DNA of 64,000 bases from Candidatus Omnitrophota bacterium (GTDB lineage Bacteria; Omnitrophota; Gorgyraeia; Zapsychrales; Fredricksoniimonadaceae), in contig JAGWOI010000004.1 of assembly GCA_028870995.1 (NCBI GenBank), positions 17,578-81,577 on the forward strand, given 5' to 3'. Positions 20,067 through 63,366 of this stretch are shown piece after piece. The position numbers were made by a program, and so were the translations under genes. Numbering within the stretch: the stretch's first letter is position 1; every line of letters starts with the position of its first letter. A model generated the notes under the pieces. The model saw only the letters and a list, made by a program, of their open reading frames with translations, ran no database searches and was not told where the DNA came from.

Positions 20067-20080
20067 GGAGACAGTTGTTT

Positions 20081-46897: not shown

Positions 46898-46926
46898 TTG
46901 ACAAGGCCATGGCGCAGGTCTATACT
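46898..46926 (+). promoter_or_regulatory. Sigma70-type promoter of the dcw cluster (TTGACA-17-TATACT)
   Basis: Read directly from the sequence, about 40 nt upstream of the mraZ ATG. Confidence 0.6.
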
Positions 46927-46965: not shown

Positions 46966-47406
46966 ATGTTTTACGGTGAATACAGCCACGGTATCGATAC
47001 CAAGGGCCGTTTGATCCTGCCTGCGCGTTTCCGGATCGTTGCCAAGGAGAACGGGATCGACAAGTTTTTTGTCACCCGCGGCCTTGATAAATGCATTTTC
47101 ATGTTCGCGGAGAATGAATGGCGCTTGCAGGAAGCACGGTTCAAGAACCTCTCCTTTACCAAGGGCGAGGCGCGTGCTTTTAACCGCATGTTCTTCTCCG
47201 GTGCCGTTGAAGTGGAGCCTGACAAACAGGGGCGCTTCATCATTCCCCAATACCTTAAGGATTTTGCCGGCATCAAGAAGGATGCCGTGGTGATAGGTCT
47301 TTCCAACCGTATCGAAATTTGGGAAACCGCCGCATGGCGGGAGTTCTTTAACAAAACCAGCGGTGAGTTCGAAAAGACCGCGGAGCACATGCTGGATATG
47401 GGTTGA
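46966..47406 (+). CDS. mraZ: Transcriptional regulator MraZ
   Basis: Start refined to ATG 46966. Two SpoVT/AbrB-like repeats with the DTKGRLILP / DKQGRFIIPQ motifs. Confidence 0.88.
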   Translation: MFYGEYSHGIDTKGRLILPARFRIVAKENGIDKFFVTRGLDKCIFMFAENEWRLQEARFKNLSFTKGEARAFNRMFFSGAVEVEPDKQGRFIIPQYLKDFAGIKKDAVVIGLSNRIEIWETAAWREFFNKTSGEFEKTAEHMLDMG

Positions 47407-48308
47407 TGGAGCCTCAGAGCCCCGTCCATATATCCGTGATGCCTCAAGAGGCGCTTGATCTGCTGCGCCTTCCGCCCGGCGGCATTGCCGTTGACGGCAC
47501 CTTGGGGATGGGAGGGCATGCCCTCCTGATGGCCCGGGTTTTGGGGAACAGCGGACATTTGATCGGCATTGATCGCGACAACGCTTCTTTAAGGCAGGCT
47601 GAAAAGAAGCTTTCTTCTCTTGAGTTAAAGATTGATTTGTTGCAGGGAAGTTTCAGCAGGCTCGATATAATTTTAGCCGGCCTTAAAGTAAGCGCTGTCG
47701 ACGGTATTTTGCTGGACTTAGGCATCTCGAGTTTTCAGCTGGACGATTCGGCCCGTGGTTTTGCTTTCAGCAGCGAAGGGCCGTTGGATATGCGGATGGA
47801 TGCGGCGCAGACGACCACCGCGGCGGACCTGGTCAACACGCTCAAAGAGGTCCAGCTAGAAAGAATAATAGCGGAATTCGGCGAAGAACGCTTCGCCCGG
47901 CGGATCGCGGCGGCCGTGGTGATGAGCCGCTCCAAGGCCAGGATCGCCACGACCAGGGAATTGGCTGATATCATTTTGCGCGCCTTGCCCAGGGGTTACA
48001 CCCGCGGGCGTATCCATCCGGCCACCAGGACTTTCCAGGCCCTGCGCATCGCGGTCAATGGGGAATTGGACGAGCTGGCCTTGGGGCTGGATGTGTGCTT
48101 CAGGATGTTGAAGAAGGGCGGCCGGTTGTGCGTGATATCGTTTCATTCATTGGAAGACCGGCTGGTGAAGAATAAATTTAAAACGTGGGGGGCGGGGGAC
48201 GAAGGTCTGGTATTGACCAAAAAGCCTTTGACGGCAGCGGAAGCGGAGTGTGAAGGCAATCCCCGCAGCCGCAGCGCCAAATTAAGAGCGATTGAAAGGT
48301 TAAAATGA
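47403..48308 (+). CDS. rsmH: 16S rRNA (cytosine1402-N4)-methyltransferase RsmH (MraW)
   Basis: SAM-binding motif (VDGTLGMGGH) and the conserved C-terminal region. Confidence 0.9.
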   Translation: MMEPQSPVHISVMPQEALDLLRLPPGGIAVDGTLGMGGHALLMARVLGNSGHLIGIDRDNASLRQAEKKLSSLELKIDLLQGSFSRLDIILAGLKVSAVDGILLDLGISSFQLDDSARGFAFSSEGPLDMRMDAAQTTTAADLVNTLKEVQLERIIAEFGEERFARRIAAAVVMSRSKARIATTRELADIILRALPRGYTRGRIHPATRTFQALRIAVNGELDELALGLDVCFRMLKKGGRLCVISFHSLEDRLVKNKFKTWGAGDEGLVLTKKPLTAAEAECEGNPRSRSAKLRAIERLK

Positions 48309-48676
48309 GTTTAAAAGTCTATTTTAAAATAGCCATGTTCGTCACTATAATATCTTTGTTGTATATCCATATGCAGATGAAGATTTTTGAGTTATCCTAT
48401 AGGGACAAGGATAAAGAAAAGATCATCCATGAATTGAATGACAGCAATGGCTCCTTGAACCACCAGATTTTGACCATGGAATCCGCCAACAGTCTGGGCA
48501 ACCGGCTGCTGGACCATGACAGCAATTTCCAATTTATGGACAATCAACGGGTCATGACCGTGGTGGCCTCGGCCCAAGGCATGCCGCATATCAGCCAGCC
48601 CAGACCGAAGCCCGTTGGTCCTGCCTGGGGTTTGTTCTCGTTTTTAGGCGCTCAGGAAGCCAAGGCCTGGGAATAG
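48305..48676 (+). CDS. ftsL: Cell division protein FtsL-like
   Basis: Small bitopic protein (TM helix FVTIISLLYI, then a coiled-coil region). Position between rsmH and ftsI. Confidence 0.6.
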   Translation: MSLKVYFKIAMFVTIISLLYIHMQMKIFELSYRDKDKEKIIHELNDSNGSLNHQILTMESANSLGNRLLDHDSNFQFMDNQRVMTVVASAQGMPHISQPRPKPVGPAWGLFSFLGAQEAKAWE

Positions 48677-48700
48677 ACACAAGACTAGCTAGAGGTTAAA

Positions 48701-50392
48701 TTGTTCCTTCGTAAGTATCCGCTCCGTTTCGCCGTAGTGTGCCTATTTTTATTTGCAGGTTTTGCTTACTCCGTCGGATTTCTCGTTTTTATCCAGATCT
48801 TCCGCTCCGATTATTTAAGCAATCTCGCCAAGCGCCAGCACGAGCATTCCATAGTCCTGGAGCCCCGGCGGGGGACCATTTATGACCGCAACATGAGGCC
48901 GCTGGCGATCAACCTGCCGGTTTATTCCATTTATGCCAATCCCAAGATCATGCGCCGGCCGCATGATGTGGATGTGGCGGTGGCAAAATTGTCCGTGATT
49001 TTGAAGACGGATCCCCGGTTGATCCGTGAAAAACTTGAAAAGGATAAATATTTTGTTTGGATTCAGCGCAAGGTGCCGCAGGATGTCTTCCTGCAGGTCA
49101 ATGCGTTAAAGCTTGTCGGCATCGGGTTTATTAAGGAAAGCAAACGTTATTACCCCAACCAAACCCTGGCCGCGCATTTGATCGGATTTGTCGGTATTGA
49201 CAATAACGGCCTGGACGGCCTGGAGCGCGATTATGACAAGTACCTGCGGGGAAAGCCCGGGCATGCCATCATCCTGCGCGATGCCCGTTCCAGGGAATTG
49301 ATGTTCAACAAAGGGTATGTGCCGGCCGAGGATGGCTATAATATTGTCCTGACCATCGATGAAACGATCCAGTTTATCGCGGAGCGGGCCCTCGACGCCA
49401 TGTATAGAAAGTACAATTGCAAGGGCGCCAGTATCATCGTCATGGACCCGCGCACCGGTGAGATCCTGGCCTTTGCCAACCGCCCCACCTATAACCTGGA
49501 GCAGGTTTCCAAGAGCACGCCGGAATCACGTACCGACCGCGCCATTGTTTTTACCTATGAGCCCGGTTCGGTGTTCAAGATCATCACGGCTTCGGCAGCG
49601 CTGCAGGAGGGCGTCGTCAGGGAAGGGGACATGATCAATTGCGAGCACGGCGCCTGGCGCGTGGCCGGCCATGTCCTGCATGATGCCGAAAAGTTCGGCG
49701 TGCTGACCTTTAAACAGGTCATTGAGCAGTCGAGCAACATCGGTACCACCAAGGTGGCCATGCGCCTGGGACCGAAGCGCATTTATGATTATGCCCGCCG
49801 TTTCCGTATTGGGATGAAGACCGGCATCGACCTGCCCGGCGAAGCGTCAGGGATATTGAAACCCGTGAGCCGCTGGTCAAAAACCTCCATCAGCGCGGTG
49901 CCGATAGGCCAGGAGGTGACGGTGACCCCGATCCAGCTCGTCTGCGCCATGTCCGCCATCGCCAATGGCGGTGTTTATATGAGGCCGTACGTCGTCAAGT
50001 CCATCGTTGACAGCCAGGGTCATGTTCTTTATGAGCATAAACCTCAAATCCTGGACAAGGTCATAACAACGACAACGGCCAGACGGATGAAAGCCATTTT
50101 AGAGGGAGTTGTCAAGGAGGGCACCGGTGTCAAAGCCGCCATCCCCGGTGTTGTCGTCGCGGGCAAGACAGGGACGGCCCAAAAGGTGGTCAACGGCGCT
50201 TATTCCCATTCGCATTTTTATGCGACGTTCGACGGTTTCGCCCCGGCGGACCATCCCCGCCTGGCCGCGGTGGTGGTCTTCGACGACCCGCACCCGGCTT
50301 ATTACGGCGGTTCAGTGTCAGCGCCGGTCTTTTCCCAAGTCATTGGGGATTCCCTGAAATACCTGGCCTCGAGAGGCCCAAGCGGCGGTTAG
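48701..50392 (+). CDS. ftsI: Peptidoglycan D,D-transpeptidase FtsI (PBP3 family)
   Basis: TTG start. Transpeptidase motifs SVFK (STFK-type), SSN and KTGT. Confidence 0.88.
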   Translation: MFLRKYPLRFAVVCLFLFAGFAYSVGFLVFIQIFRSDYLSNLAKRQHEHSIVLEPRRGTIYDRNMRPLAINLPVYSIYANPKIMRRPHDVDVAVAKLSVILKTDPRLIREKLEKDKYFVWIQRKVPQDVFLQVNALKLVGIGFIKESKRYYPNQTLAAHLIGFVGIDNNGLDGLERDYDKYLRGKPGHAIILRDARSRELMFNKGYVPAEDGYNIVLTIDETIQFIAERALDAMYRKYNCKGASIIVMDPRTGEILAFANRPTYNLEQVSKSTPESRTDRAIVFTYEPGSVFKIITASAALQEGVVREGDMINCEHGAWRVAGHVLHDAEKFGVLTFKQVIEQSSNIGTTKVAMRLGPKRIYDYARRFRIGMKTGIDLPGEASGILKPVSRWSKTSISAVPIGQEVTVTPIQLVCAMSAIANGGVYMRPYVVKSIVDSQGHVLYEHKPQILDKVITTTTARRMKAILEGVVKEGTGVKAAIPGVVVAGKTGTAQKVVNGAYSHSHFYATFDGFAPADHPRLAAVVVFDDPHPAYYGGSVSAPVFSQVIGDSLKYLASRGPSGG

Positions 50393-50393
50393 C

Positions 50394-51869
50394 ATGCGTT
50401 TAAGCGAATTACTCGACGGACTCTATACCAAACCCATTGCCTTGCCATGGCAGGCTTTCGATGTCGCCGCCATTTCCTGCGATTCGCGTGAGGAACAAAA
50501 GGGCGGGCTGTTCGTGGCCCTGCCCGGGTTCAAATTCGACGGACGGGAGTTTATCGATGATGCCGTCAAGCACGGGGCAAGGATCGTTGCCGTCAAAGGG
50601 TGCCCCCCCAAAGGGGACAATATCCTTTCGGGGGACAGGACGCTTTATCTTGATGTCGAGGACCCGAAGCATTTCCTGCGCTGCCTTGCCCGACGGTTTT
50701 ACGGCACTCCTTCCGCGCGGGTCAAGTGTGTGGGCGTCACCGGCACCAACGGCAAGACAACCATCACGTACCTCATCGAATCCATTATCCGGGCCGCGGG
50801 CTCGCGCTGCGGCGTTATCGGCACCATCAACCACCGCATCGGCGATAAAATAATCCCGTCGAAAAACACCACTCCCGGCTTCCTGGACAATCAGCGCTAC
50901 CTGGCCCAATTGGCGGACGCCGGCGCCGATTATTGCGTGATGGAGGCCTCCAGCCATGCCCTGGACCAGGGGCGGCTTGAAGACATCCATTTTTCCGCGG
51001 GCATTTTTACCAATTTGACGCAGGACCATCTGGATTATCACAAGGACATGGAGGATTATTTCAGGGCCAAATCGCTCTTGTTCAGCAAATTGAGTTCATC
51101 ATCGACGGCGATCATCAACATCGATGACCCGTACGGCCAAAAACTCTTGACCCTGACCGGGTGCCCGGTCATTCCTTATGCCGTCGATACGCCGGCGAAG
51201 GTCCATGCCGCCAATATCCGCTACGATCTGGACGGCAGCCGCTTTGACATTATTTTTCCTGACGGCACCATCAACATCCATACCCGGTTTATCGGCCGCC
51301 ACAATGTGTACAATATCCTGGCCGCCTTTGCCTGGGGCATGAGCCAGGGGTTCGGTCCTCAAATCATCCGGCAGGGGATCGAGAAACTGCAGGCCGTTCC
51401 TGGCCGGCTTGAAGGGGTGGATAACGATCAAGGCATTTTCATATTCATCGATTACGCGCATACCGAGGACGGGCTGGTCAATGTGCTTAAGGCCTTAAGG
51501 GCCGTGACCAGTGAAAGGATCATTCTTGTCTTCGGCTGCGGGGGCGACCGGGACAGGAGCAAACGGCCCCAAATGGGCCAGGCCGCCTGCCGGCTGGCCG
51601 ATTATTCGATCGTCACCAGCGACAATCCCCGCAGCGAGGATCCTGCGGCCATCATCAGCGAAATCGTTGTCGGTTTTACCAAAAAGAATTTTGAAACCTG
51701 TATCGACCGTACCCAAGCCATCAGTCTGGCCCTTGAGATGGCGCAGCCGGGCCAGGTGGTCTTGATCGCGGGCAAGGGGCATGAGAATTACCAGATTTTC
51801 AAAGACCGTACCATCACCTTCGACGAACGGGACGTCGTCAGTCAATGTTTACAATCCAGGAAATCCTGA
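50394..51869 (+). CDS. murE: UDP-N-acetylmuramoyl-L-alanyl-D-glutamate--2,6-diaminopimelate ligase
   Basis: Mur ligase P-loop GVTGTNGKTT and a DNPR motif near the C-terminus. Confidence 0.9.
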   Translation: MRLSELLDGLYTKPIALPWQAFDVAAISCDSREEQKGGLFVALPGFKFDGREFIDDAVKHGARIVAVKGCPPKGDNILSGDRTLYLDVEDPKHFLRCLARRFYGTPSARVKCVGVTGTNGKTTITYLIESIIRAAGSRCGVIGTINHRIGDKIIPSKNTTPGFLDNQRYLAQLADAGADYCVMEASSHALDQGRLEDIHFSAGIFTNLTQDHLDYHKDMEDYFRAKSLLFSKLSSSSTAIINIDDPYGQKLLTLTGCPVIPYAVDTPAKVHAANIRYDLDGSRFDIIFPDGTINIHTRFIGRHNVYNILAAFAWGMSQGFGPQIIRQGIEKLQAVPGRLEGVDNDQGIFIFIDYAHTEDGLVNVLKALRAVTSERIILVFGCGGDRDRSKRPQMGQAACRLADYSIVTSDNPRSEDPAAIISEIVVGFTKKNFETCIDRTQAISLALEMAQPGQVVLIAGKGHENYQIFKDRTITFDERDVVSQCLQSRKS

Positions 51870-53224
51870 AAGCCGTTAAAGGGGACTTGCTGCAGGGGCC
51901 TGCCCGCGGCAGATGCGTTTCTGTCTCCATCGATTCGCGGCATGTCAAGAAGGGCCAACTATTCATCGCCATCAAAGGCGAAGTCTTCGACGGGCATGAT
52001 TTTATCGATCAGGTGACGGCCAGGGGCGTGCAGACCTTGGTCGTCCATAGGCCCATTGAGGTCAAGGACCCAAGGGCCAGCGTTATCCTGGTCAAGGATA
52101 CAGCCCATGCCCTTGGAGATGTGGCGCGCTATCACCGTCTCAGGTTTAAGATACCAGTCATTGCCCTGACCGGATCCGCCGGCAAGACAACGACCAAGGA
52201 GATGGTCGCGGCGGTGCTGGGATGCCGCTACAAGGTCTTAAAGAACGAAGGCACCCAAAATAATCATATCGGCGTGCCCCTGACCCTGCTTAAATTAAGA
52301 CCTTCGCACCGTATCGTTGTCCTGGAATGCGGCACCAACCAGCCAGGCGATATTGCCTGGCTGGCGGATGTGGCGCGTCCCACCGTCGCTGTTTTTACAA
52401 ACATCGGTGCCTCCCACCTGGAAAAATTGAAGACAACAGCCGGAGTTTTAAGGGAGAAATGGCGTTTGACGACCTTTTTGGGCCGCAAAGATAAGGTCAT
52501 TCTTAATGCGGATGATGTTCTTTTATCAAAACAGCAGAAGCGTCTAAGGCATCCTTTCAAGATCATGACTTTCGGGATCAACGCCAAAGCGGATTGGACC
52601 GCCCATGCTATTCATGTCCATGCCGGCCGGTATTTAAAATTCCGGATGGGGGACCGAAGCTTTGAGTTAAACTCCTGCGGGATAAACCATGTCTACAATG
52701 CTCTGGCCGCTTTTGCCTGCGGCCGCTTGTTTAAAGTACCGTCCCGGGATATCGCCCGCGCGCTTAGTCTTTTTGAATTTCCCCAGGGGAGAGGGCAGAT
52801 CCTGCGCCTGGGGAAAGGATGGATGATCAATGACACGTATAACGCCAATCCGGTTTCTATGAATTCGGCCCTGCAGACCCTGCAGGCCATTGAAACCCGG
52901 GGCCAAAGGATCTTTGTCGCCGCGGACATGCTGGAGCTGGGCGGGAAGTCCAGGCTGCTGCACCAGGCCCTGGGCAAGAGTGTGGTGAAGGCCGGGGTCG
53001 ATGTTTTAATCACCGTCGGAACCATGGCCCGGCTGGCGGCCCGAAAAGCCAGGCAGCTCGATAAAAAAATAAAGGTATTTGCTTGCGCCGACGCCCACTC
53101 CGCGCAAAAATACTTAGCAAAAATATTTCATAACGGGGACGCGGTCCTGGTCAAGGGTTCCCGTCGCATGAAGATGGAAGAGGTGGCTGAGTTTTTGCTG
53201 GCCTCTCCCAAAGGATCGGGTTAA
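51845..53224 (+). CDS. murF: UDP-N-acetylmuramoyl-tripeptide--D-alanyl-D-alanine ligase
   Basis: Mur ligase P-loop TGSAGKTTTKE. Gene order. Confidence 0.9.
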   Translation: MFTIQEILKAVKGDLLQGPARGRCVSVSIDSRHVKKGQLFIAIKGEVFDGHDFIDQVTARGVQTLVVHRPIEVKDPRASVILVKDTAHALGDVARYHRLRFKIPVIALTGSAGKTTTKEMVAAVLGCRYKVLKNEGTQNNHIGVPLTLLKLRPSHRIVVLECGTNQPGDIAWLADVARPTVAVFTNIGASHLEKLKTTAGVLREKWRLTTFLGRKDKVILNADDVLLSKQQKRLRHPFKIMTFGINAKADWTAHAIHVHAGRYLKFRMGDRSFELNSCGINHVYNALAAFACGRLFKVPSRDIARALSLFEFPQGRGQILRLGKGWMINDTYNANPVSMNSALQTLQAIETRGQRIFVAADMLELGGKSRLLHQALGKSVVKAGVDVLITVGTMARLAARKARQLDKKIKVFACADAHSAQKYLAKIFHNGDAVLVKGSRRMKMEEVAEFLLASPKGSG

Positions 53225-54312
53225 TGTTTTACTTTTTATCGCAGTATTTTTATAATTCCACCCATTTTAATATTTTTCGTTACATCACCTTCCGCGCCGG
53301 TATGGCCGGGGTCACGGCATTTTTGCTGTGCATGATCTTCGGGCCGGTGTTTATCAAGTTGACCAGACGGCGCCGCATCGGTGAGTCGGCCAAGCGCCAG
53401 GACGCCCCGGGCCTTGACCAATTCCAGGTCAAAAAGGACGGTACGCCCACCATGGGCGGAATCTTTATCGTGGGCAGTATCCTGGCGTCCGTCATTTTAT
53501 GGGGCAATTGGTCCAACAGCTTCACGGTCATGACCGCCTGGGTCTGTGTTTCCTTCGCCCTGCTGGGCGGCTGGGATGATTATATAAAGCTCAAAGGGAT
53601 CGGTCCCCATCGCGGGATTTCCGCCAGAGTCAAGTCTTTTTGGCAGGTGACGATCGCCTTTATCGTCGGTGTTTTCGTTTATCTATACCCCTATATCACC
53701 ACCAACCTGGATGTGCCCTTCTTCAAGCATTTGATCATCAACCTGGGGCCGTTCTTCGTCTTCTGGGTGGTCCTGGTGGTCGTGGGTTCGTGCAATGCGG
53801 TCAACCTGACCGACGGGCTTGACGGCCTGGCTATCGGCTGCACCTTGATGGTGGCTTTCACCCTGGCCATTTTGAGTTACGTCACCGGCAACGTCGAGAT
53901 GAGCGGTTACCTGTACGTCACCTATGTGCCGGGCGCCGGGGAGCTGACCGTATTTTGTATGGCCATCGTCGGTGCAAGCCTCGGGTTTCTCTGGTTTAAT
54001 TCCTATCCCGCCACTGTTTTTATGGGGGACGTTGGTTCCCTGGCCCTGGGCGGGAGCCTGGGGATGATCGCGGTCCTGATAAAGAAGGAAGTATGGCTGG
54101 TGGTTTTGGGCGGTGTTTTCGTCATTGAGGCCGGTTCCGTGATTTTGCAGGTTTTTTCTTTTAAATTGACGGGAAAGCGCATTTTCAAAATGTCGCCTTT
54201 CCATCATCATTTGCAGTTGTCCGGTTGGAACGAGAACAAGATCATCGTCAGATTCTGGATTGTGGCCATTATCCTGGCCATGTTGACCATCACCACCTTA
54301 AAGATCCGGTAA
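53224..54312 (+). CDS. mraY: Phospho-N-acetylmuramoyl-pentapeptide transferase
   Basis: Ten-TM protein with MraY motifs (NAVNLTDGLDGLA; HHH). Confidence 0.92.
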   Translation: MFYFLSQYFYNSTHFNIFRYITFRAGMAGVTAFLLCMIFGPVFIKLTRRRRIGESAKRQDAPGLDQFQVKKDGTPTMGGIFIVGSILASVILWGNWSNSFTVMTAWVCVSFALLGGWDDYIKLKGIGPHRGISARVKSFWQVTIAFIVGVFVYLYPYITTNLDVPFFKHLIINLGPFFVFWVVLVVVGSCNAVNLTDGLDGLAIGCTLMVAFTLAILSYVTGNVEMSGYLYVTYVPGAGELTVFCMAIVGASLGFLWFNSYPATVFMGDVGSLALGGSLGMIAVLIKKEVWLVVLGGVFVIEAGSVILQVFSFKLTGKRIFKMSPFHHHLQLSGWNENKIIVRFWIVAIILAMLTITTLKIR

Positions 54313-54321
54313 GCGTTCGAC

Positions 54322-55584
54322 ATGTCATTTGTTAAAGGTAAAACAGTAACAGTCATCGGCGCTGCCAGGAGCGGGATTGCGGTCGCCAACGCGGTTTTGC
54401 GTCTGGGCGGGGCGGCCAAGATTTCCGAGAGCAAGCCGCTGGATGAGTTCAGCGGCCGGCTTAAAGAGTTGTCCGACCCCGTAGGCGTGCGCATTGAACA
54501 TGGGGGGCACACCAAAGCCTTTATTCAGGACAGCGACTATGTGGTCCTTAGTCCAGGCGTGCGCCAGGACGCCCAGCCGGCGGCATGGGCAAGGCAGCAC
54601 GGCCTGGAAGTGATGGGCGAGGTTGAATTTGCCTTTCGTTTGTGCCCTTGCCCGATCGTAGCGGTCACGGGCAGCAACGGCAAGACCACCACTTCGACGG
54701 TGATCGCCGAGATCATCAAGGCCGCCGGCCGTACGGTCGTCTTGTGCGGCAATATCGGCAGCCCTTTTTCCAAACATGTGCTGGACTTGAGACCCTCGGA
54801 TACTGTTGTTTTGGAAATCAGTTCATTCCAATTGGAAAGCACCATCCGTTTCAAGCCCTTTGTCGCCGTGTGGACGAATTTCAGCCAGAACCATCTGGAC
54901 CGTCATAAGGACCTGAAGGAGTATTTTGACGCCAAGACCAGGATTTTTGCCAACCAGGATGAGCATGATTTCGCCGTGCTTAATTTTCAGACCCCGGAAC
55001 ACCGGAAATTGGTAACGAAGTTGAAAGCTAATTTGCTTTTTTTTAACATACCTGATAAGCCGGTGGGCACGGACAACCCCAACTATATGGCCGCCATGCA
55101 GGCCGCGCACGCCTTGGGAATCAGCGGCGAAACCTGCCTCAAGGTGTTTAGCGAGTTCAAGGGGGTTGAACACCGGTTGGAATTCGTGCGGCAGCTGGAG
55201 GGGGTCGATTATATCAATGATTCCAAATCCACGACGGTGGAAGCCGGGCGCTGGGCCCTGGAGAGGATGAACAAGCCCATCATGATGATCTGTGGGGGGC
55301 TGGACAAGCATTTGGATTATGCACCTTTAAAGGCGCTGGTGGCCCGGAAGGTCAAACGCATGGAGGCCATCGGCCAGGCCCGCGAGATCATGAAGGCCAC
55401 CTTCAGCGATGTGGTTGCAGTGGACACCTTTATGTCCCTGGAAGAGGCGGTCAAGGCCGCCCGTGCTGCTGCCAGGCCAGGGGAGTGCGTTCTGCTTTCG
55501 CCCATGTGTGCCAGCTTCGACATGTTCACCGACTATGAGCACCGGGGAGCTTGTTTTAAAGAAATCGTTAACGGGTTGACCTAA
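54322..55584 (+). CDS. murD: UDP-N-acetylmuramoylalanine--D-glutamate ligase
   Basis: Mur ligase P-loop GSNGKTTT and the MurD N-terminal Rossmann fold (VIGAARSG). Confidence 0.9.
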   Translation: MSFVKGKTVTVIGAARSGIAVANAVLRLGGAAKISESKPLDEFSGRLKELSDPVGVRIEHGGHTKAFIQDSDYVVLSPGVRQDAQPAAWARQHGLEVMGEVEFAFRLCPCPIVAVTGSNGKTTTSTVIAEIIKAAGRTVVLCGNIGSPFSKHVLDLRPSDTVVLEISSFQLESTIRFKPFVAVWTNFSQNHLDRHKDLKEYFDAKTRIFANQDEHDFAVLNFQTPEHRKLVTKLKANLLFFNIPDKPVGTDNPNYMAAMQAAHALGISGETCLKVFSEFKGVEHRLEFVRQLEGVDYINDSKSTTVEAGRWALERMNKPIMMICGGLDKHLDYAPLKALVARKVKRMEAIGQAREIMKATFSDVVAVDTFMSLEEAVKAARAAARPGECVLLSPMCASFDMFTDYEHRGACFKEIVNGLT

Positions 55585-55630
55585 GACGGGGACACTTCTG
55601 TCGTAAGTTAATACATTGCAATACGATACT

Positions 55631-55668
55631 TAGAAACGGTCCAATACATTAGAAACGGTCCAATACAT
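55631..55668 (+). repeat. Perfect 19-bp tandem direct repeat (TAGAAACGGTCCAATACAT x2) immediately upstream of the ftsW start codon, with a third partial copy (AATACAT) about 20 nt upstream
   Basis: Read directly from the sequence in the 85-nt murD-ftsW gap. Confidence 0.6.
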
Positions 55669-55669
55669 T

Positions 55670-56758
55670 ATGCGCCAGGAGAGAATCAATTTATCCATCA
55701 CTGTTTTGACCTTGATTTGCTTTGGCATCATCATGATTTATTCGGCCAGTTGTGTCAATGCCATGCAGACCTTCGGCGACAGCATGTATTTCCTTAAACG
55801 CCATCTGTTGTTTTTGACCCTGGGGCTGGTGGCGTCGTTTTTTATCATGCGCATGGATTACCGCCGGATACAACCTTTCGCCCGTCCTTTGATAGGCTTG
55901 TGCGTCCTTCTTTTGATTTTTGTCTTGATCCCCCATATCGGCAACGAAAGTTACGGCGCCCGCCGGTGGTTCAAGCTGGGCGTCTTCCATTTTCAGCCCT
56001 CGGAGCTCGCCAAACTGGCGCTGATCATCTATACGGCGGATTTCCTGCACCGTAAACAACACCTCGTCAGAAGTTTTAGGTATGGGTTCCTGCCGCCACT
56101 GATCGTCATGGGCATCTTATGCGCCTTGACCGTCAAGCAGCCGGATTTGGGCACGACTGTCGAAATGGCGGTCGTGACCCTCACGATGCTGTTCTTGGGT
56201 GGGGCAAGGCTTTGGCACTTGGGCCTGGTCTTCGGCTCCGCGGTGCCGGTATTGGTTTACCTTATCGTTAAAGAGCCCTACCGCATGGCACGCATCATTG
56301 CCTTTCTCGATCCCTGGCAGGACAGCCAGGGGATCGGCTTTCAATTGACCCAATCGCAGATCGCCCTGGGTTCCGGCGGCCTCTTCGGCGTGGGGCTGGG
56401 CCACAGCAAGCAGAAACTTTTTTACCTGCCGGCGGCACATACGGATTTCATCCTCTCCATCATCGGTGAAGAGCTGGGGCTTATCGGGACGCTGACCGTC
56501 ATCACCCTGTTTTGCCTTTTTATCTGGCAGGGTACCCGTATTGTGCGCCAGACCAACAATGCCTTCGGCTATTTTCTGGGGATGGGTATCGTCATGATGC
56601 TGGGCTTGCAGGCCATGGTTAATGTTGGCGTCAGTATCGGCGCCTTTCCCACCAAGGGCTTGCCGCTGCCGTTTATCAGCTACGGCGGCAGCGCTTTGAT
56701 CTTTCATTTGGCGGCCATTGCCTTGCTGTTGAACATTTCCAAGGTTGAGGACTACTGA
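55670..56758 (+). CDS. ftsW: Peptidoglycan glycosyltransferase FtsW (SEDS family)
   Basis: Ten-TM SEDS protein with conserved motifs (…IMIYSAS…; GGSAL). Confidence 0.9.
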   Translation: MRQERINLSITVLTLICFGIIMIYSASCVNAMQTFGDSMYFLKRHLLFLTLGLVASFFIMRMDYRRIQPFARPLIGLCVLLLIFVLIPHIGNESYGARRWFKLGVFHFQPSELAKLALIIYTADFLHRKQHLVRSFRYGFLPPLIVMGILCALTVKQPDLGTTVEMAVVTLTMLFLGGARLWHLGLVFGSAVPVLVYLIVKEPYRMARIIAFLDPWQDSQGIGFQLTQSQIALGSGGLFGVGLGHSKQKLFYLPAAHTDFILSIIGEELGLIGTLTVITLFCLFIWQGTRIVRQTNNAFGYFLGMGIVMMLGLQAMVNVGVSIGAFPTKGLPLPFISYGGSALIFHLAAIALLLNISKVEDY

Positions 56759-57822
56759 TGAAGGTTTTAATCGCCACCGGCGGCACAGGCGGCCACATTT
56801 TTCCCGCCATCGAGACGGCCAAGGCCTTGAGGACCAGGGGCCATCAGGTGAGTTTTGCCGGTGTTTTGGGAAGCAACGAGGCCAAGATCAGGGAACTGGA
56901 TTTTCCGGTATTTGCGTTAAGTGCCCAGGGCCTGACCGATGTCACCTTCAAGGGCTGGCTTAAATTCGCCGGCATCATGGGCCAGGCGGTGTTCCGTTCC
57001 TTTAGCGTGGTGCGTAAATGCGCGCCGGACAAGATCATGGGTTTTGGCAGTTACGGCGCGTTTCCCGTCGTCATGGCCGGCGCCCTGATGCGCTATCCGG
57101 TGGTGATCCATGAGCAGAATGTGGTGCCCGGGCGCGCCAATGCCTTCCTGGCCAATATCGTGAGAAAGGTGGCGATCAGTTTTGAGAGCAGCAGGCAGTT
57201 TTTCGCGCCGGGTAAGGCCATTTGGACTGGGTGCCCTTGCCATTACAAGTCCCTGCCGTCGAAGGCCGAAGGGCTGCTGGCCTTTGACCTGAAGGAAAAT
57301 AAAAACACGCTTGTGCTGGTGGGGGGATCCCAGGGCAGCCAAAAGCTCAATGAGGTGTTCTTCGAAATGATGAAGGACATGCCGCCGGCCGATTTCCAGG
57401 CCATCCATATGACCGGCGTCAAGGAATTCGCCAAGTATGAGGCTCTTTATCATCAGGAGAGCCTGCCTGTCAAGGTTTGCGCCTTTATCGACAACATCAC
57501 CCATGCCTATGCCGCCGCGGACCTTGTCATCGCCCGGGCCGGGGCGGCCACCATCAACGAATTGGGGCTCCTGGGCATTGCCGCCGTGCTGGTACCGTAC
57601 CCCTTTGCCGGCAATCATCAAAAATACAATGCCCGCATCCTGGCGATGGCCGGCGCCGCGGCGCTCATCGAGCAGAGAGATTTGACCAAGGCTTCCCTGA
57701 AAGAAGCGGTGGCCCGCATGTTGTTTTCCAATTTCACGAGGGAGGATATCCTAAAAAAGACCAAAGGCTTGTTTCAGGCGGACGCGGCGCTGCAATTGGC
57801 GCTGGTGACAGAAGGGCTATGA
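56758..57822 (+). CDS. murG: UDP-N-acetylglucosamine--N-acetylmuramyl-(pentapeptide) pyrophosphoryl-undecaprenol N-acetylglucosamine transferase
   Basis: N-terminal GGTGGH motif and a GT-B fold. Confidence 0.9.
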   Translation: MKVLIATGGTGGHIFPAIETAKALRTRGHQVSFAGVLGSNEAKIRELDFPVFALSAQGLTDVTFKGWLKFAGIMGQAVFRSFSVVRKCAPDKIMGFGSYGAFPVVMAGALMRYPVVIHEQNVVPGRANAFLANIVRKVAISFESSRQFFAPGKAIWTGCPCHYKSLPSKAEGLLAFDLKENKNTLVLVGGSQGSQKLNEVFFEMMKDMPPADFQAIHMTGVKEFAKYEALYHQESLPVKVCAFIDNITHAYAAADLVIARAGAATINELGLLGIAAVLVPYPFAGNHQKYNARILAMAGAAALIEQRDLTKASLKEAVARMLFSNFTREDILKKTKGLFQADAALQLALVTEGL

Positions 57823-57841
57823 AGAGCGGCAGAGGAGATCT

Positions 57842-58621
57842 GTGAAAATTATTCTTTTAACCGCGCTGGCCGTTTTGCTGGCCGACGTCTCATTTGCCGG
57901 TACGCCCCAGAGCGGCTGGCAGGTGATGAAGGGGCAGGATTTTGTCATTTATTACCGACAGGACGTGCCCAATGATTTTATCCAGACCACCATGGACACC
58001 GCCGAAGACGAATTAAGGGACGTGACGGACGACATGGGCATTATTGACGAGTCGCAGTGGGGGGACAAGCCGGTCAAGATTTACATTTATAGCAACCAGA
58101 GGGACTTTGTACAAAACGGCGGCCAGGCAGGCTGGTCGCACGGGGCGGCCTTTGCCAGGGCGCGTACCATCAAGGCCTACCCGGAAGCGTCGGGCTTTTT
58201 TGACAGCATCCTGCCGCATGAACTGGGGCATATTGTTTTCCGGGATGATATCGGATATACGGCGCAGGTGCCTTTGTGGTTCGAGGAGGGGGTGGCCATT
58301 TATCAGGAGAAGGCCAAGCGGCTGGGGTCGGATACGCTTGTGCGGGAGGCGTTAAAAAATGGCCAATTTATTCCTTTATCACAGCTGACAGGTATGCGAT
58401 TATATAAAAATACGGCCAACCAGGTGGTGGATGTCTTCTATACCGAATCGGCCAGTGTGGTCCATTATATGATCGAAGAATTGGGCCGGCGGGAATTTCT
58501 TATGCTTTGCGATGAGCTTAAGTCAGGCACGCCTTTCCAGACGGCCCTGCATAAAGTCTATCTAACATTCAGGACCATCGATGACTTAAACCAGGCATGG
58601 GTGGATTATTTACAAGGGTAA
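57842..58621 (+). CDS. Secreted peptidase-MA-like (HExxH) zinc-metallopeptidase-family protein inserted between murG and murC
   Basis: Signal peptide (MKIILLTALAVLLADVSFAG), an HELGH zinc-binding motif and a downstream Glu (EEGVAIY). Confidence 0.55.
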   Translation: MKIILLTALAVLLADVSFAGTPQSGWQVMKGQDFVIYYRQDVPNDFIQTTMDTAEDELRDVTDDMGIIDESQWGDKPVKIYIYSNQRDFVQNGGQAGWSHGAAFARARTIKAYPEASGFFDSILPHELGHIVFRDDIGYTAQVPLWFEEGVAIYQEKAKRLGSDTLVREALKNGQFIPLSQLTGMRLYKNTANQVVDVFYTESASVVHYMIEELGRREFLMLCDELKSGTPFQTALHKVYLTFRTIDDLNQAWVDYLQG

Positions 58622-58623
58622 TT

Positions 58624-60021
58624 ATGAGTAAACATTATCATTTGATCGGTATCGGCGGGATCGGGATGGGGACACTGGCGTCCTTGCTGTTGGACCAAGG
58701 GCATACCATCAGTGGTTCAGATGTGAAAGACAATGAAATGACCTCGGGGCTGCGCAAAAAGGGCGTGACCGTCGCCATAGGCCACAGTGCCGGCAATATC
58801 GCCAAGACCGTTGATTATGTGGTTTACTCATCGGCCATCCGTGTCACCAATCCTGAACTTTTCGAGGCGCATAGCCGTAATCTCCCCGTGCTGCAGCGCG
58901 CACAGGTGCTGGCCCAGCTGGCCAACCAGCAGCTGCCCATCACCATCGCCGGCGCACATGGGAAAACAACGACGACCTCCATGGTCTCGAGCCTCCTTAT
59001 CAACGCGGGCCTCAAACCCACCACGGCCATCGGCGGCATCATCAACGGCACGACCGCCTACAATGCCAACCTGGGGGAAGGCAAATATTTCGTGGCGGAA
59101 GTGGACGAAAGCGACGGCACCTTTCTTTATTTCAACCCGCAATATTCCATCATCACCAACATGGATTTCGAGCACGTCGATTTTTATAAAAACTGGGATG
59201 GGATCACTCAGGCCTATGGCCGGTTCATCAGCGGCACCCGGCCGCAGGGCTGCCTGATCGTTTGCGGGGAAGACAAACGGCTGACCGAGCTGGCCCGCGG
59301 GCAGAAGGCCGGCCTTATCACCTATGGCTTGAGCAGCGATTATGATGTTTTCGCCACGGACATGGTTTCCGACGGATTTCAATCCTCTTTTTGCGCTCAT
59401 GCCCGTCAGGCCCCAGTGGGCGCCTTCGAACTGAATGTCCCTGGCCGGCATAATATTTTGAATGCCCTGGCGTGTATCAGCTTAGGGCTGGAGCTTGGTG
59501 TCCCTTATGAGGTCATGTTCAGGACGCTGAAGAATTTCACCGGCGTCAAGCGCCGCTTTCAATTAAAGGGCAAAGCGGACGGGATCATGGTGATTGATGA
59601 TTATGGCCATCATCCCACGGAAATCGCCGCAACGTTGAATGCCGCCAGGCTGTTTGCGCCCAAGCGCCTTATCACCGTGTTCCAGCCCCACCGGTATTCA
59701 AGGACAAAGTTCCTGCTGAATGAATTTGCCGCCGCCTTGGGGCTTACGGATGAGCTGGTCCTGACCGATGTTTATGCGGCCAGCGAGAAAATCGGCGAGG
59801 GGGTAGGCACCGGCGCCCTGCTCGAGAAGCTGCAAGGTGCTCTGGGGGAGAGGGTCATTTACTTAAAAAAGGAAGATATTGTAAAACATGTGCAGGATCA
59901 TGTCCGTCCCGGTGATCTGGTGATTTTCTTGGGGGCGGGGGATATTTATCATCTTTCGGATGAATTGGTTAAAAACTTGGAAACCCCGCGCAAAGCTGGG
60001 GCGGTGGAAAGGGTTTTATGA
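58624..60021 (+). CDS. murC: UDP-N-acetylmuramate--L-alanine ligase
   Basis: Start refined to ATG 58624. MurC N-terminal motif (HLIGIGGIGM) and P-loop GAHGKTTTTS. Confidence 0.9.
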   Translation: MSKHYHLIGIGGIGMGTLASLLLDQGHTISGSDVKDNEMTSGLRKKGVTVAIGHSAGNIAKTVDYVVYSSAIRVTNPELFEAHSRNLPVLQRAQVLAQLANQQLPITIAGAHGKTTTTSMVSSLLINAGLKPTTAIGGIINGTTAYNANLGEGKYFVAEVDESDGTFLYFNPQYSIITNMDFEHVDFYKNWDGITQAYGRFISGTRPQGCLIVCGEDKRLTELARGQKAGLITYGLSSDYDVFATDMVSDGFQSSFCAHARQAPVGAFELNVPGRHNILNALACISLGLELGVPYEVMFRTLKNFTGVKRRFQLKGKADGIMVIDDYGHHPTEIAATLNAARLFAPKRLITVFQPHRYSRTKFLLNEFAAALGLTDELVLTDVYAASEKIGEGVGTGALLEKLQGALGERVIYLKKEDIVKHVQDHVRPGDLVIFLGAGDIYHLSDELVKNLETPRKAGAVERVL

Positions 60022-60968
60022 GTTCTCGTCAGTTCGGCAATATAGGTGTATTGATGGGCGGTTATTCCTCAGAACGGGAAATTTCCCTGCGTTCGGGCCA
60101 GGCTGTGGCTGAAGCGTTGTCCCAGGAAGGTTACCGGGTGGTGCCGCTGGACATCACCGCCAACGATAGCCCCAAGATCATCCAGCAAATCCAGAAAGCG
60201 CCTTTGGATGTGGCATTTATCGCCCTGCACGGCCGTCTGGGGGAAGACGGTACCATCCAGGACATCCTGGAAAAATTGGATATCCCTTATACCGGCTGCG
60301 GGGTGAAGGCCAGCCAAACGGCTTTTAATAAAATCCTTACCCAGAAGGCGCTGGCTGCCGCGGGCCTGCCGGTGCCGGTGCATTATTGCATCACCGATGG
60401 TAAAGTGGTGGATTTCAAGGGCGCCTGGAACCATATTAAATCAACACCCATGGTGGTCAAGCCGGCCTGCGAAGGCTCGAGCATCGGCGTGCATATGGTG
60501 CGCCATCCTTCCGAGTGGGAACCGGCTTTCAAGAACGCCTTGAATTACGGGCCGCAGATCATTATCGAGCAATTCATCAGGGGCCGGGAATTCACCGCCG
60601 GCATTTTCGACCGGGAATGCCTGCCGCTGGTGGAGATCTGCCCCAATGCCACTTTTTTTAATTTTACCGCCAAATACCAAAAGGGCGCCACCCAGTATGT
60701 ATGCCCTGCGGTCATCGATGAGGGGCTGGCAGGTAAAATCAAGGCGATGTCCCTGGCCGCCGCCGAGGTGCTGGGGTGCCAGGAGTTTTGCCGGGTGGAC
60801 CTGCGGGTGGACGATAACCGGCAGCCTTTCATCCTTGAGATCAATACCATTCCGGGGTTTACGGGAACAAGCCTTTTTCCCAAGGCGGCCAAGGAAGCCG
60901 GGTATAGTTTTGTGCAGGTCTGCGAGAAACTTCTGGATTTGGCCTATGGCAAAAAAGTCAAGCGTTAA
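60018..60968 (+). CDS. ddl: D-alanine--D-alanine ligase
   Basis: ATP-grasp fold with Ddl motifs (…ALHGRLGEDGT…; EINTIPGFT). Confidence 0.88.
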   Translation: MSSRQFGNIGVLMGGYSSEREISLRSGQAVAEALSQEGYRVVPLDITANDSPKIIQQIQKAPLDVAFIALHGRLGEDGTIQDILEKLDIPYTGCGVKASQTAFNKILTQKALAAAGLPVPVHYCITDGKVVDFKGAWNHIKSTPMVVKPACEGSSIGVHMVRHPSEWEPAFKNALNYGPQIIIEQFIRGREFTAGIFDRECLPLVEICPNATFFNFTAKYQKGATQYVCPAVIDEGLAGKIKAMSLAAAEVLGCQEFCRVDLRVDDNRQPFILEINTIPGFTGTSLFPKAAKEAGYSFVQVCEKLLDLAYGKKVKR

Positions 60969-61713
60969 TATCTCACCCATCGCGATCATCCGCGTTATTG
61001 TCTTTTTATTTATCGGTTTCGTTGTATTCACCGGCTATGTCAACGCCGTTGATTTTCTCACCAGCTCTCCCTTGTTTTCCGTTAAGGACGTGCTTATCGA
61101 CCGTTCCATCCAGTTTATCGACCTGCGGACGCTCAGGGAGATCCCCGGCACCAATATATTCGAGGTGGATATCAATAAGCTTGACCGTCAGATACGCCGC
61201 CGCTATCCTTATATCGCCGAGTTAAGGGTGGTGCGCCAGCTGCCGGACCGCATCCTGGTCCTGGCCAAGCAACGTGAGGCGCTGATGCAGATTTATTATA
61301 AGAAAAAGTATTTGCAGCTGGACACCGAGGGGGTGGCTTTATATTATACCCTGCAGCCGGCCGAGGTGCCCTTGGTTTTCGGGGTTCCTGTCGATAATTC
61401 ACTGTTCTTGGGCGGGACCGTTCGCGGGGCGAGCTTAAAAAAAGTAGTGAAGATTCTCAACATCTTCAAGCGTTCTCCCTACCTGAAACGCTGGCGCATT
61501 CACGCCGTCCAGGCGGGTAACCTGGCGAAAATAGACCTTTCTGTAGGAGAGAGCATGCATGTGATCCTTGATCAGGACAATACCGAGGAAAAGATCGGGC
61601 TGCTGCAGATGCTGGTGGCCTCGAACAAGCTCGATTTGAACAAGGTCAAATACATTGATTTGAGGTTTCATGAGCCCATCATCGCCAACAACGAGGAAGG
61701 CAAGGAAAAATAA
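60946..61713 (+). CDS. ftsQ: Cell division protein FtsQ/DivIB
   Basis: Start placed at ATG 60946; the longer ORF 60646..61713 overlaps ddl out of frame. TM helix (IIRVIVFLFIGFVVF) followed by POTRA-like and beta domains. Confidence 0.7.
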   Translation: MAKKSSVNISPIAIIRVIVFLFIGFVVFTGYVNAVDFLTSSPLFSVKDVLIDRSIQFIDLRTLREIPGTNIFEVDINKLDRQIRRRYPYIAELRVVRQLPDRILVLAKQREALMQIYYKKKYLQLDTEGVALYYTLQPAEVPLVFGVPVDNSLFLGGTVRGASLKKVVKILNIFKRSPYLKRWRIHAVQAGNLAKIDLSVGESMHVILDQDNTEEKIGLLQMLVASNKLDLNKVKYIDLRFHEPIIANNEEGKEK

Positions 61714-61715
61714 GG

Positions 61716-62948
61716 ATGTTTAGGAAAATGGCACAGACACAATATTTTTGCGGATTGGATTTGGGCACCCATACCCTGAAGGCTGGCATCATCTGCGCCA
61801 AGGACGAGGAGAATCTGGACCTGATGGGCGTCTTCGAGACCAGGGCCACGGGTTTCAAAGAAGCCTCCATCAGCGATATCGCCGAGCTGTCGGATTGTAT
61901 CCAGCATGTCATGCAGGGGGTGATGCAGAAGACCGGCATCAAGGTTCACGCCGTCCAGCTGGGGATCAGCGGCAGCTTTCTGGCTGTCCGGCGCAGTTCG
62001 GCCATCATTCCGCTGATCGACAGCGGCACCAAGGTGGTCTCCGCCTTTGATTTGCGCAAGGTGGATCACCAGGCCAAATTGCTGGGCGTCAACCTGGACG
62101 AGGACATTATCCATGATTTTCCGCAGTGGTACAGGGTCGATGACGTCAATACGTCCGCCAATCCGGCCGGGTTGGTGGGCCGGAAGATTGAATCCAGCCT
62201 TTTATTGTTGACGGCGCAAGCCTTGCGCCTGCGCAACTTGACCAAGGCCGTGCACCAGGCGGGCTTCGAGGTCAACAGTGTCGCCTTTAGCGGGTTTGCC
62301 GCGGGCGACGTTGCCGTTGACAAGGAAGATAAGACACAGGGCTGTGCCCTGGTGGATATCGGCGCCAACATCACCTCGGTGATTTTCTTCAAGAACGGCA
62401 TCGTGGGCGATGTGCAATTCATTCCCTGGGGCGGCAACTACATCACCCAAACGATCGCTGAGCGCTTAAGCCTTACTGTTGATTTGGCCGAGGAGATCAA
62501 AAAGACACAAGGCCAGGCCAGCCAGTCCGATCCCAAGGAGGTTTCCGGAGAAATCCTGGTTAAGCGTGAAAAGGGTTATATGCCCATCCGCCGGGAGGCT
62601 GTTTGCGAGGCGGTCAACTGGGAGATCGAAAATTTCCTGACCCATTTGGAGGCCGTGGTGAAGGGGTCGAATCTTTATTACCAATTGAACAAGGGGATCG
62701 TGATGGTGGGCGGGGGCTCGTTATTGACGGGTGCCATTGAGCGCATCGAAGAGCGGGTCAACCGTCCGGTGCGCATGGGGGCCTCGACACCGGGCTTGAA
62801 CAACGCGCCGGTCTATGCGGCGGCCATAGGCCTCGGCCGGATGCATTATTTGAAAAAGAAGCAGGAGTCTTTGAACATCAAGACCCCCGCGGCGTTCAAG
62901 GACAAGATCGTCAACAGCGTCAGAGAATTGTGCCAGGAATATTTTTAA
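61716..62948 (+). CDS. ftsA: Cell division protein FtsA
   Basis: Actin/ASKHA fold (GLDLGTHTLK; …VMVGGGSLL…). Confidence 0.88.
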   Translation: MFRKMAQTQYFCGLDLGTHTLKAGIICAKDEENLDLMGVFETRATGFKEASISDIAELSDCIQHVMQGVMQKTGIKVHAVQLGISGSFLAVRRSSAIIPLIDSGTKVVSAFDLRKVDHQAKLLGVNLDEDIIHDFPQWYRVDDVNTSANPAGLVGRKIESSLLLLTAQALRLRNLTKAVHQAGFEVNSVAFSGFAAGDVAVDKEDKTQGCALVDIGANITSVIFFKNGIVGDVQFIPWGGNYITQTIAERLSLTVDLAEEIKKTQGQASQSDPKEVSGEILVKREKGYMPIRREAVCEAVNWEIENFLTHLEAVVKGSNLYYQLNKGIVMVGGGSLLTGAIERIEERVNRPVRMGASTPGLNNAPVYAAAIGLGRMHYLKKKQESLNIKTPAAFKDKIVNSVRELCQEYF

Positions 62949-63316
62949 TAATCCTTGTCTTCGCGGGCGGGTTTTTGGTCGAAGCGGCGTTTGCTTAAGT
63001 TAAATTCGATGTTCCTGATGGCGCTGCGGATCCTGGAATTATGGCTGATGAGGTTTAAGACGCCAAGGGCTATCAATATCAGGAGCATGACGGTGAGGAT
63101 CATGGCGTAGCTTTGGATCAGCAGCAGTTGGGCGATGACATCGTTTTTGGGGACATCGAAGCTGGAATAGATCGTTTTAAGGCCGATGCCGAAGCCCAGG
63201 ATGAAAATAATGATGAGGATGACCTGGAAGAAAATGATGTAAAAATGCCGTCCCATCCACTGGCCGGCGCGGTTGTCCCATTGCCTTATCTTGGAAAGCA
63301 ACTCATTTTGTCCCAT
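62945..63316 (-). CDS. Small membrane protein (hypothetical), convergent with ftsA
   Basis: 123 aa with two TM helices (IIFFQVILIIIFILGFGIGL; ILTVMLLILIALGVLNLI). Confidence 0.4.
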   Translation of the reverse strand: MGQNELLSKIRQWDNRAGQWMGRHFYIIFFQVILIIIFILGFGIGLKTIYSSFDVPKNDVIAQLLLIQSYAMILTVMLLILIALGVLNLISHNSRIRSAIRNIEFNLSKRRFDQKPAREDKDY

Positions 63317-63366
63317 AGGATTCTTTTATTTTAGGGAGACAGAAGGCTGTTGCCAAGGGTTTTTTT

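Follow-up and report, generated by a model that had tools for sequence, protein, structure and literature searches.

Cell division without FtsZ is a long-standing open question and has been studied almost only in Chlamydiae and Planctomycetes, both of which lack FtsA as well (Pende et al., 2021; PMC8178401). The same study shows Omnitrophica as FtsZ-less alongside these two groups (its Fig. 5b). In Escherichia coli K-12, the dcw cluster (for division and cell wall) ends in murG-murC-ddlB-ftsQ-ftsA-ftsZ, with murC and ddlB overlapping and murB placed elsewhere on the chromosome. Here we describe the dcw operon found in a 64,000-nucleotide stretch of DNA (the window) from a Candidatus Omnitrophota bacterium (assembly GCA_028870995.1, contig JAGWOI010000004.1, positions 17,578 to 81,577). 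Fifteen genes, a peptidase gene included, run on the plus strand from mraZ to ftsA, as established from open reading frames (ORFs) and Pfam and NCBIfam scans. Apart from the peptidase gene, their order (mraZ-rsmH-ftsL-ftsI-murE-murF-mraY-murD-ftsW-murG-murC-ddl-ftsQ-ftsA) is that of E. coli K-12, which the window also resembles in the murC/ddl overlap, in a cluster without murB and in a promoter-like site 5' of mraZ. The region is the dcw operon of a Candidatus Omnitrophota bacterium, colinear with that of E. coli and differing from it by the lack of ftsZ and by the presence of the peptidase gene and an orphan gene. Where E. coli has ftsZ-lpxC after ftsA, the window has a convergent orphan membrane gene (62945..63316, minus strand), and where E. 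coli has 53 nt between murG and murC, the window has a 780-bp gene for a secreted metallopeptidase of the gluzincin type (57842..58621, plus strand). A first-pass annotation made from the DNA letters had called this gene order with the peptidase between murG and murC, a signal peptide and an HELGH motif in the peptidase, and a convergent small membrane protein gene after ftsA. All of these were borne out, the first by Pfam and NCBIfam, the second by a PF13485 match and an N-terminal hydrophobic segment, and the third by a 123-amino-acid ORF with two transmembrane (TM) helices on the minus strand.

Two features are apparently undescribed: the constant place of the gluzincin gene between murG and murC, and that of the orphan hairpin gene tail-to-tail with ftsA. 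A full-text literature search returned no paper describing either gene, and a search for PF13485 or metallopeptidases in dcw clusters returned nothing relevant; the available portions of Seymour et al. (2023) and Pende et al. (2021) make no mention of the murG-murC peptidase, the ftsA-adjacent orphan gene or variation in murB. The window peptidase has the same sequence (100% identity) as NCBI protein KGK03_02265 from a 'Candidatus Omnitrophica bacterium' metagenome-assembled genome (MAG), and the orphan protein is identical to KGK03_02290 of the same MAG. The five-tag spacing between the two corresponds to murC, ddl, ftsQ and ftsA, with no further annotated gene between. Misassembly of the MAG was rejected as the cause of the arrangement, since more than 100 independent assemblies show it as well. 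In the NCBI taxonomy, Candidatus Omnitrophota belong to the Planctomycetes-Verrucomicrobia-Chlamydiae (PVC) group.

The conservation of the locus was followed in three samples. The first held 80 GTDB species-representative loci seeded with the peptidase and is biased toward peptidase presence by its own seed; the second held 80 metagenome loci seeded with an Omnitrophota FtsA alignment and was chosen independently of the peptidase. The third added 8 further loci; seven loci seeded with the MurB of locus L070 were inspected, and these amount to six distinct places, since L167 and L168 share gene content. In total, 2.2 Mb was searched (169 loci and the window). Of the 35 FtsA-seeded loci that hold both murG and murC, 30 have the peptidase between these two genes, as do 4 of the 7 MurB-seeded loci, so that among loci picked independently of the peptidase the order murG-peptidase-murC is found in 34/42 (41 distinct places). 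The peptidase is conserved to the same degree as its neighbours, with a mean identity to the window protein across loci of 50.6%, compared with 46.6% for MurG, 49.7% for FtsA and 51.6% for MurF. In the window, the GTG start of the peptidase gene, provided with an AGGAG Shine-Dalgarno sequence, comes 20 nt after murG, and murC starts 2 nt past the peptidase stop codon; across 110 loci the median gaps are -1 nt to murG and +2 nt to murC. Because of these near-zero gaps, the peptidase gene is almost certainly co-transcribed with its neighbours, and translation is probably coupled as well.

This conservation bears on the possibility that the protein has a general housekeeping or nutrient function as a peptidase of the periplasm, its gene inserted once and carried along by synteny inertia without a specific role in division. 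Such a history would fit the patchy absence of the gene in close and distant relatives, the absence of domain fusions or known partners, and its assignment to PF13485, which is a broad, uncharacterised family. It fits less well with the gene's neighbourhood: the first-pass annotation had raised the prospect of unrelated contexts in relatives, but murG and/or murC are neighbours in 80/80 peptidase-seeded loci and no other context was seen. The compact, coupled junctions are also kept across lineages whose FtsA is down to ~35% identical, and conservation stands at the level of essential neighbours. We regard a housekeeping role as improbable.

The peptidase is a protein of 259 amino acids with an N-terminal hydrophobic segment (residues 1-22) and an AFA-G cleavage-like site; a hydrophobic N-terminus of this kind is present in 105/111 homologues. 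The match to PF13485 (Peptidase_MA_2) reaches 61.3 bits against a gathering cutoff of 32.4, and the same family is annotated on homologues in precomputed data. The HELGH motif spans residues 126-130, and H126, E127, H130, E149 and Y200 are invariant in 113/113 full-length homologues. The zinc-site spacing (HExxH-x18-E) and a WFEEG motif both recall gluzincins of the M1 type. While a sequence-profile search of the Protein Data Bank (PDB) with the peptidase found nothing, an AlphaFold (AF2) model with a mean predicted local distance difference test score (pLDDT) of 87.2 gave matches by Foldseek. The best PDB matches were peptidase domains of M9 collagenases (E=1.9e-6, query TM-score ~0.63) and M1 aminopeptidases, and enzymes of families M61 and M30 matched as well. 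On these features the protein is a secreted zinc gluzincin of clan MA with an intact catalytic site, predicted to be active.

Placement in a described family is less straightforward. With the M9 collagenases (ColH, ColG, ColT) and M1 enzymes the peptidase has in common a thermolysin-like fold of two subdomains, the HExxH motif with a downstream glutamate ligand and the invariant tyrosine; with M1 it further has the x18 spacing, and its WFEEG resembles the M1 WLNEG. However, sequence identity to these enzymes is 9-19%, and the peptidase is without the activator and collagen-binding domains of the former and the N- and C-terminal domains of the latter. Membership in M1 was rejected, as the protein has no GxMEN exopeptidase motif and is a single domain without flanking N-terminal beta or C-terminal ARM domains. 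Membership in M9 or the flagellinolysins was likewise rejected, the NF033876 score being 26.1 bits against a cutoff of 205; the target-normalised TM-score against M9 is only 0.25-0.45.

What the peptidase cleaves can be approached from its fold and from the genes around it. Exported to the periplasm, it would be an endopeptidase that cleaves a protein or peptide belonging to the envelope or the divisome, for example the periplasmic part of FtsI, FtsQ or FtsL or an envelope tether, and would serve in maturation or turnover. Cleavage of a peptide or polypeptide is suggested by the fold, and work alongside lipid II synthesis and the septal synthases by gene context, which would dose this proteolysis together with both. 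There is precedent for envelope proteases of this kind: Prc of E. coli processes FtsI, and RasP of Bacillus subtilis degrades FtsL. These enzymes provide the analogy behind the proposed mechanism, although they belong to families S41 and M50 and are encoded outside the dcw cluster, and the window peptidase is connected with their substrates by analogy only. Since some close relatives do without it, the peptidase would have an accessory, modulating role and would not belong to an indispensable core. We tentatively favour the maturation or turnover of an envelope or divisome protein by a periplasmic endopeptidase.

A gene in such a place could instead encode an enzyme that hydrolyses peptidoglycan, whether as an endopeptidase for stem peptides or cross-links or as a carboxypeptidase, and that splits or remodels the septal peptidoglycan made by FtsW-FtsI and replaces the FtsZ/FtsEX/EnvC-amidase route reported to be lacking in the phylum. 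The protein is secreted, matches MurG and FtsA in its degree of conservation and is encoded inside a peptidoglycan-synthesis operon; no AmiA, NlpD or EnvC was found in 'Omnitrophica' (Rivas-Marin et al., 2016). The DNPR motif of the window MurE (residue 410) is typical of enzymes that add meso-diaminopimelate (meso-DAP), and implies an ordinary DAP-type peptidoglycan that needs cleavage for cell separation. Against this, both fold and motifs belong to gluzincins whose substrates are polypeptides of L-amino acids (M9, M1, M61, M30), and neither Pfam, NCBIfam nor the PDB fold search gave a match to M23/LytM, M15, M14, NlpC/P60 or Amidase_3. To our knowledge, no HExxH gluzincin is established as a hydrolase of peptidoglycan stem peptides. 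The lack of the gene in some close relatives is also hard to square with a sole septum-splitting enzyme. Peptidoglycan hydrolysis is therefore unlikely in our estimation. The first-pass annotation had proposed a division-associated peptidase acting on peptidoglycan or protein; gene context agrees with an association with division, but the fold is unlike that of known peptidoglycan hydrolases and the gene is dispensed with in some close relatives.

The second departure from E. coli lies at the end of the operon, where ftsZ is missing. In the window, a six-frame scan found no tubulin/FtsZ signature and tblastn with E. coli K-12 FtsZ gave no match at E<1, in agreement with the first-pass annotation, which had seen no FtsZ ORF. 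Neither FtsZ nor MurB is among the Pfam annotations of the remaining ~40 window genes. When the K-12 FtsZ query was run against the full 2.2 Mb, nothing better than E=2.1 was obtained, while K-12 FtsA, used as a positive control on the same sequence, was detected in 145 loci at E<1e-10. In about 100 loci the sequence reaches 1.5-10 kb past the downstream end of ftsA, and none has ftsZ there. By sequence inspection, the ORF clusters that recur 3' of ftsA encode an epimerase, a DegT-type aminotransferase, glycine-cleavage T/H/P proteins, a response regulator and similar products. A divergent FtsZ was sought among these ORFs, but the recurrent clusters look like other genes and no tubulin signature was found.

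The literature on the phylum points the same way. A supplement to Seymour et al. (2023) reports Omnitrophota without an ftsZ homolog save one archaeal-like occurrence, which is 89% identical to an archaeal protein (Seymour et al., 2023). The Supplementary Data of Pende et al. (2021) include five Omnitrophica genomes, and the four other than that of OLB16 all lack FtsZ, three of them having FtsA. An earlier work credited Omnitrophica with FtsZ on the basis of 'Omnitrophica bacterium OLB16' alone (Rivas-Marin et al., 2016). In current NCBI taxonomy, OLB16 (taxid 1617433) is classed as Candidatus Hinthialibacterota. This amounts to a correction of the literature, in that the only 'Omnitrophica' genome credited with FtsZ is now classed outside the phylum. 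That Omnitrophota have lost FtsZ and retained FtsA has been published before, albeit only in a supplement and in the legend of a figure. The first-pass annotation had pointed to the PVC group, for parts of which a loss of ftsZ is known, and had found the retention of the other fts genes without a nearby ftsZ notable; NCBI taxonomy does place the phylum in this group, and the loss is indeed reported phylum-wide (Seymour et al., 2023; Pende et al., 2021), but it is not new for the phylum.

FtsA itself is well preserved. The window ftsA (61716..62948, plus strand) scores 209.5 against the TIGR01174 cutoff of 175.85, and its product matches FtsA in the PDB at 1.7e-57, with the SHS2 (1C) insert and actin-like fold recognised by PF02491 and PF14450. 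A conserved C-terminal tail (...KELxQEYF) resembles the ...WLRKEF of E. coli in alignment. In Omnitrophota FtsA (~residues 295-305), the 2B helix carries a 7-residue deletion around R300-E303 of the E. coli protein, and the R300 position is occupied by E, D, V, T, K or Q, never by Arg. The 2B region around R300/E303 (R301/E304 in Thermotoga) is presumably the docking site of the FtsZ tail, and these changes may mean that the site has been lost. As the first-pass annotation had stated, ftsA, ftsQ, ftsW, ftsI and ftsL are all kept with no ftsZ nearby, FtsL being only 'FtsL-like'. Division would presumably run on FtsA together with FtsQ, FtsL, FtsW, FtsI and FtsK, without a Z-ring.

The position next to ftsA is held by the orphan gene, KGK03_02290 ('c0'; 62945..63316, minus strand), which has a 4-nt overlap with the ftsA stop. 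Of the 116 loci with 450 bp or more beyond ftsA, 108 have a homologue, and in 104 this homologue is convergent with ftsA at a distance of no more than 150 bp. This placement is kept where FtsA is ~35-40% identical and the genes further downstream differ. The orphan gene does not adjoin ftsA in Candidatus Aceula-like loci or in the lineages that retain murB. In locus L162 (8525-16259; a 1.29-Mb contig from the same genome as L005), an insertion of ~8 kb that contains IS1595 and Y1 transposases, a Peptidase_S74 protein and a 1042-aa ORF parts ftsA from the orphan gene. An AlphaFold model of the orphan protein, built on an alignment of closer homologues, has a pLDDT of 79 and shows two TM helices in a hairpin and two cytoplasmic amphipathic/basic helices. 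The family is marked by the motifs K(V/I)RxWDNRxAxWMxRHFY and LLLLNSFWxLYIFNG. It has no match among Pfam or NCBIfam families, and Pfam run on 16 members returned transmembrane-bias noise only. An exhaustive hidden Markov model search of 1.84 billion representatives recovered only 25 clusters of the family, almost all of ~120 aa, and all named homologues come from Omnitrophica. Judged by these searches, it is a phylum-restricted orphan family.

The lack of an in-cluster murB is unremarkable. With murC ending at 60021 and ddl starting at 60018, there is no space for murB between them, and neither E. coli nor Omnitrophota MurB queries gave a match in the window; murB was not found within ~10 kb in the window or in ~160 related loci of its broad clade. 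The first-pass annotation was right that murB has no room between murC and ddl, but its premise that an in-cluster murB is usual was overstated, the E. coli K-12 cluster being without murB too. Because E. coli has the same murC-ddl junction and other Omnitrophota keep murB in the cluster, its absence here is an ordinary, E. coli-type arrangement. Loci L053 and L070, both from Omnitrophota, have the order murC-murB-ddl. A search with the L070 MurB returned many proteins named 'UDP-N-acetylmuramate dehydrogenase [Candidatus Omnitrophota]', and murB lies between murC and ddl in all seven of the MurB-seeded places inspected; this search returned only lineages with murB in the cluster and none of the window's own lineage. 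It is likely that murB has been relocated elsewhere in the window genome, since the precursor pathway is otherwise complete and murB was found conserved throughout the PVC group in a 2025 survey. Two further loci are of interest for murB and its lineages. In L052, otherwise without murB, a MurB-like stretch of 52 aa (12073-12228; E=3e-8) directly follows murC, and may be what is left of a murB or may arise artificially from an extended N-terminus of the query. In L169 (8627-11422), from a murB-retaining lineage, ftsA is directly followed by a YggS-type (Ala_racemase_N) gene and proC. In other phyla, a yggS/ylmE-type gene usually lies directly after ftsZ, and the order in L169 looks as if ftsZ had been cleanly excised.

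These findings can be set against the simplest explanation of the locus, a rearrangement in which ftsZ and murB both lie intact elsewhere in the genome and division is canonical. The 64 kb searched directly is only part of the genome, murB very likely does lie elsewhere on the grounds just given, and FtsA, whose best-known role is to tether FtsZ, is kept. However, two independent surveys found ftsZ absent phylum-wide (Seymour et al., 2023; Pende et al., 2021), the only FtsZ-positive genome (OLB16) has been reclassified out of the phylum, there is no ftsZ in the 2.2 Mb around 169 dcw loci, and Omnitrophota FtsA has the 7-residue deletion in the 2B region described above. We consider a simple rearrangement highly improbable. 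The account as a whole, of an FtsZ-less dcw operon with an embedded peptidase gene, is in our view probable, the periplasmic, protein-cleaving role of the peptidase being its more tentative part, and several observations count against it. For this genome, the FtsZ-less state is drawn from phylum-level literature and synteny, with a direct search of 64 kb. A 2025 paper describes the dcw genes of Omnitrophota as 'highly conserved' and does not single out ftsZ. On the side of the peptidase, murG abuts murC with no peptidase in the fetched locus in L092, L104 and L109, whose FtsA is 78-81% identical to that of the window, and in several distant relatives; the peptidase is dispensable or relocatable at least in these. 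The murG-murC gaps of the three closer loci are 49-77 nt (L092, 1598-1654; L104, 2574-2624; L109, 1114-1192), which indicates recent loss or relocation of the peptidase. As for the first-pass interpretation overall, the pointer to the PVC group, the loss of FtsZ, the retained fts genes and the secreted metallopeptidase inside the operon have stood, but the murB point, the novelty of the FtsZ loss and the role of the peptidase were overstated.

The remaining genes of the operon, all on the plus strand, were assigned by ORF listing and by Pfam and NCBIfam scans. The strongest promoter-like site of the region, a sigma-70-like TTGACA-17-TATACT that matches the consensus at 11/12 positions (46898..46926, plus strand), lies directly 5' of mraZ and is by this match a candidate Pmra. 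Downstream of it, mraZ begins with an ATG at 46966 (46966..47406; PF02381, 2.7e-38) and is followed by rsmH (mraW; 47403..48308; PF01795, 1.5e-101). The next ORF (48305..48676) encodes a small bitopic protein with an N-terminal TM segment at ~residues 1-27, termed FtsL-like by position and topology only; it has no family match in Pfam or NCBIfam and is conserved in 41 related loci. Then come ftsI, encoding a class B penicillin-binding protein (48701..50392; PF00905, 6.6e-79, and PF03717), and murE (50394..51869), recognised by its Mur ligase domains. Pfam matches identify murF (51845..53224), mraY (53224..54312), murD (54322..55584) and murG (56758..57822), and between the last two lies ftsW (55670..56758; PF01098, 7.6e-116; TIGR02614, 418.6 bits with the cutoff at 337.5). 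Beyond the peptidase gene, Pfam identifies murC (58624..60021) and ddl (60018..60968), which overlap by 4 nt. The match of ftsQ (60946..61713) is weak (POTRA_1, 2e-6; FtsQ_DivIB_C, 3e-3). The starts of murC (58624) and ftsQ (60946) were refined from gene calls on the identical contig L001; a longer ftsQ ORF from 60646 would overlap ddl.

The orphan gene after ftsA has its own sigma-70-like promoter candidate (TTGGCA-17-TAAAAT; 63328..63356, minus strand), a consensus match only. It is followed by a lipoprotein-like ORF on the plus strand (63367-63876) with the lipobox LFSGC and no family match, which is kept beyond the orphan gene in 12 closer relatives; beyond it, a tRNA starts at the window edge. 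By Pfam, the other ~40 genes of the window include pst/phoU, pnp, ftsK, rodZ, riboflavin genes, ligA, a xerC/D-type recombinase gene, truB and ribF. The ftsK gene, with 4TM, alpha, motor and gamma domains, and an overlapping rodZ (HTH_25 and RodZ_C) lie at 25977-29058 (plus strand); FtsK and RodZ are key players in the FtsZ-less division of chlamydiae. At 20006-21256 (plus strand), a ParA/MinD-type P-loop ATPase (AAA_31, CbiA, MipZ) is fused to a C-terminal CBM48/AMPK1_CBM domain, and the pairing of such an ATPase with a glycogen-binding domain is an unusual combination in an FtsZ-less organism. At 2918-11665 (plus strand) lies a giant ORF of 2915 aa to which Pfam assigns nothing at E<=1e-4; giant genes have been reported as a trait of Omnitrophota.

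A bolder proposal is that Omnitrophota have a third, FtsA-centred mode of FtsZ-independent division, in which the gluzincin and the orphan hairpin are lineage-specific parts of the divisome. The membrane hairpin would then anchor or organise FtsA filaments in place of a Z-ring, and the peptidase would supply a periplasmic proteolytic or hydrolytic step that is normally timed by FtsZ-dependent regulators. We hold this to be quite unlikely as a whole. The gluzincin and the orphan hairpin nevertheless offer concrete candidates for the changes that went with the loss of FtsZ, and heterologous expression, biochemistry and interaction prediction are feasible for both although the phylum is uncultured.

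In comparison with the Chlamydiota and Planctomycetota, members of the same PVC superphylum, Omnitrophota are alike in the absence of FtsZ and in keeping FtsK, FtsQ, FtsW/FtsI and the peptidoglycan precursor genes. They differ in that FtsA, lost in the other two, is kept at full length and above its equivalog cutoff, and in that their dcw operon is unfragmented. Omnitrophota are a third FtsZ-less lineage, one that retains FtsA and an intact dcw operon, and in it the loss of FtsZ and the loss of FtsA are separated.

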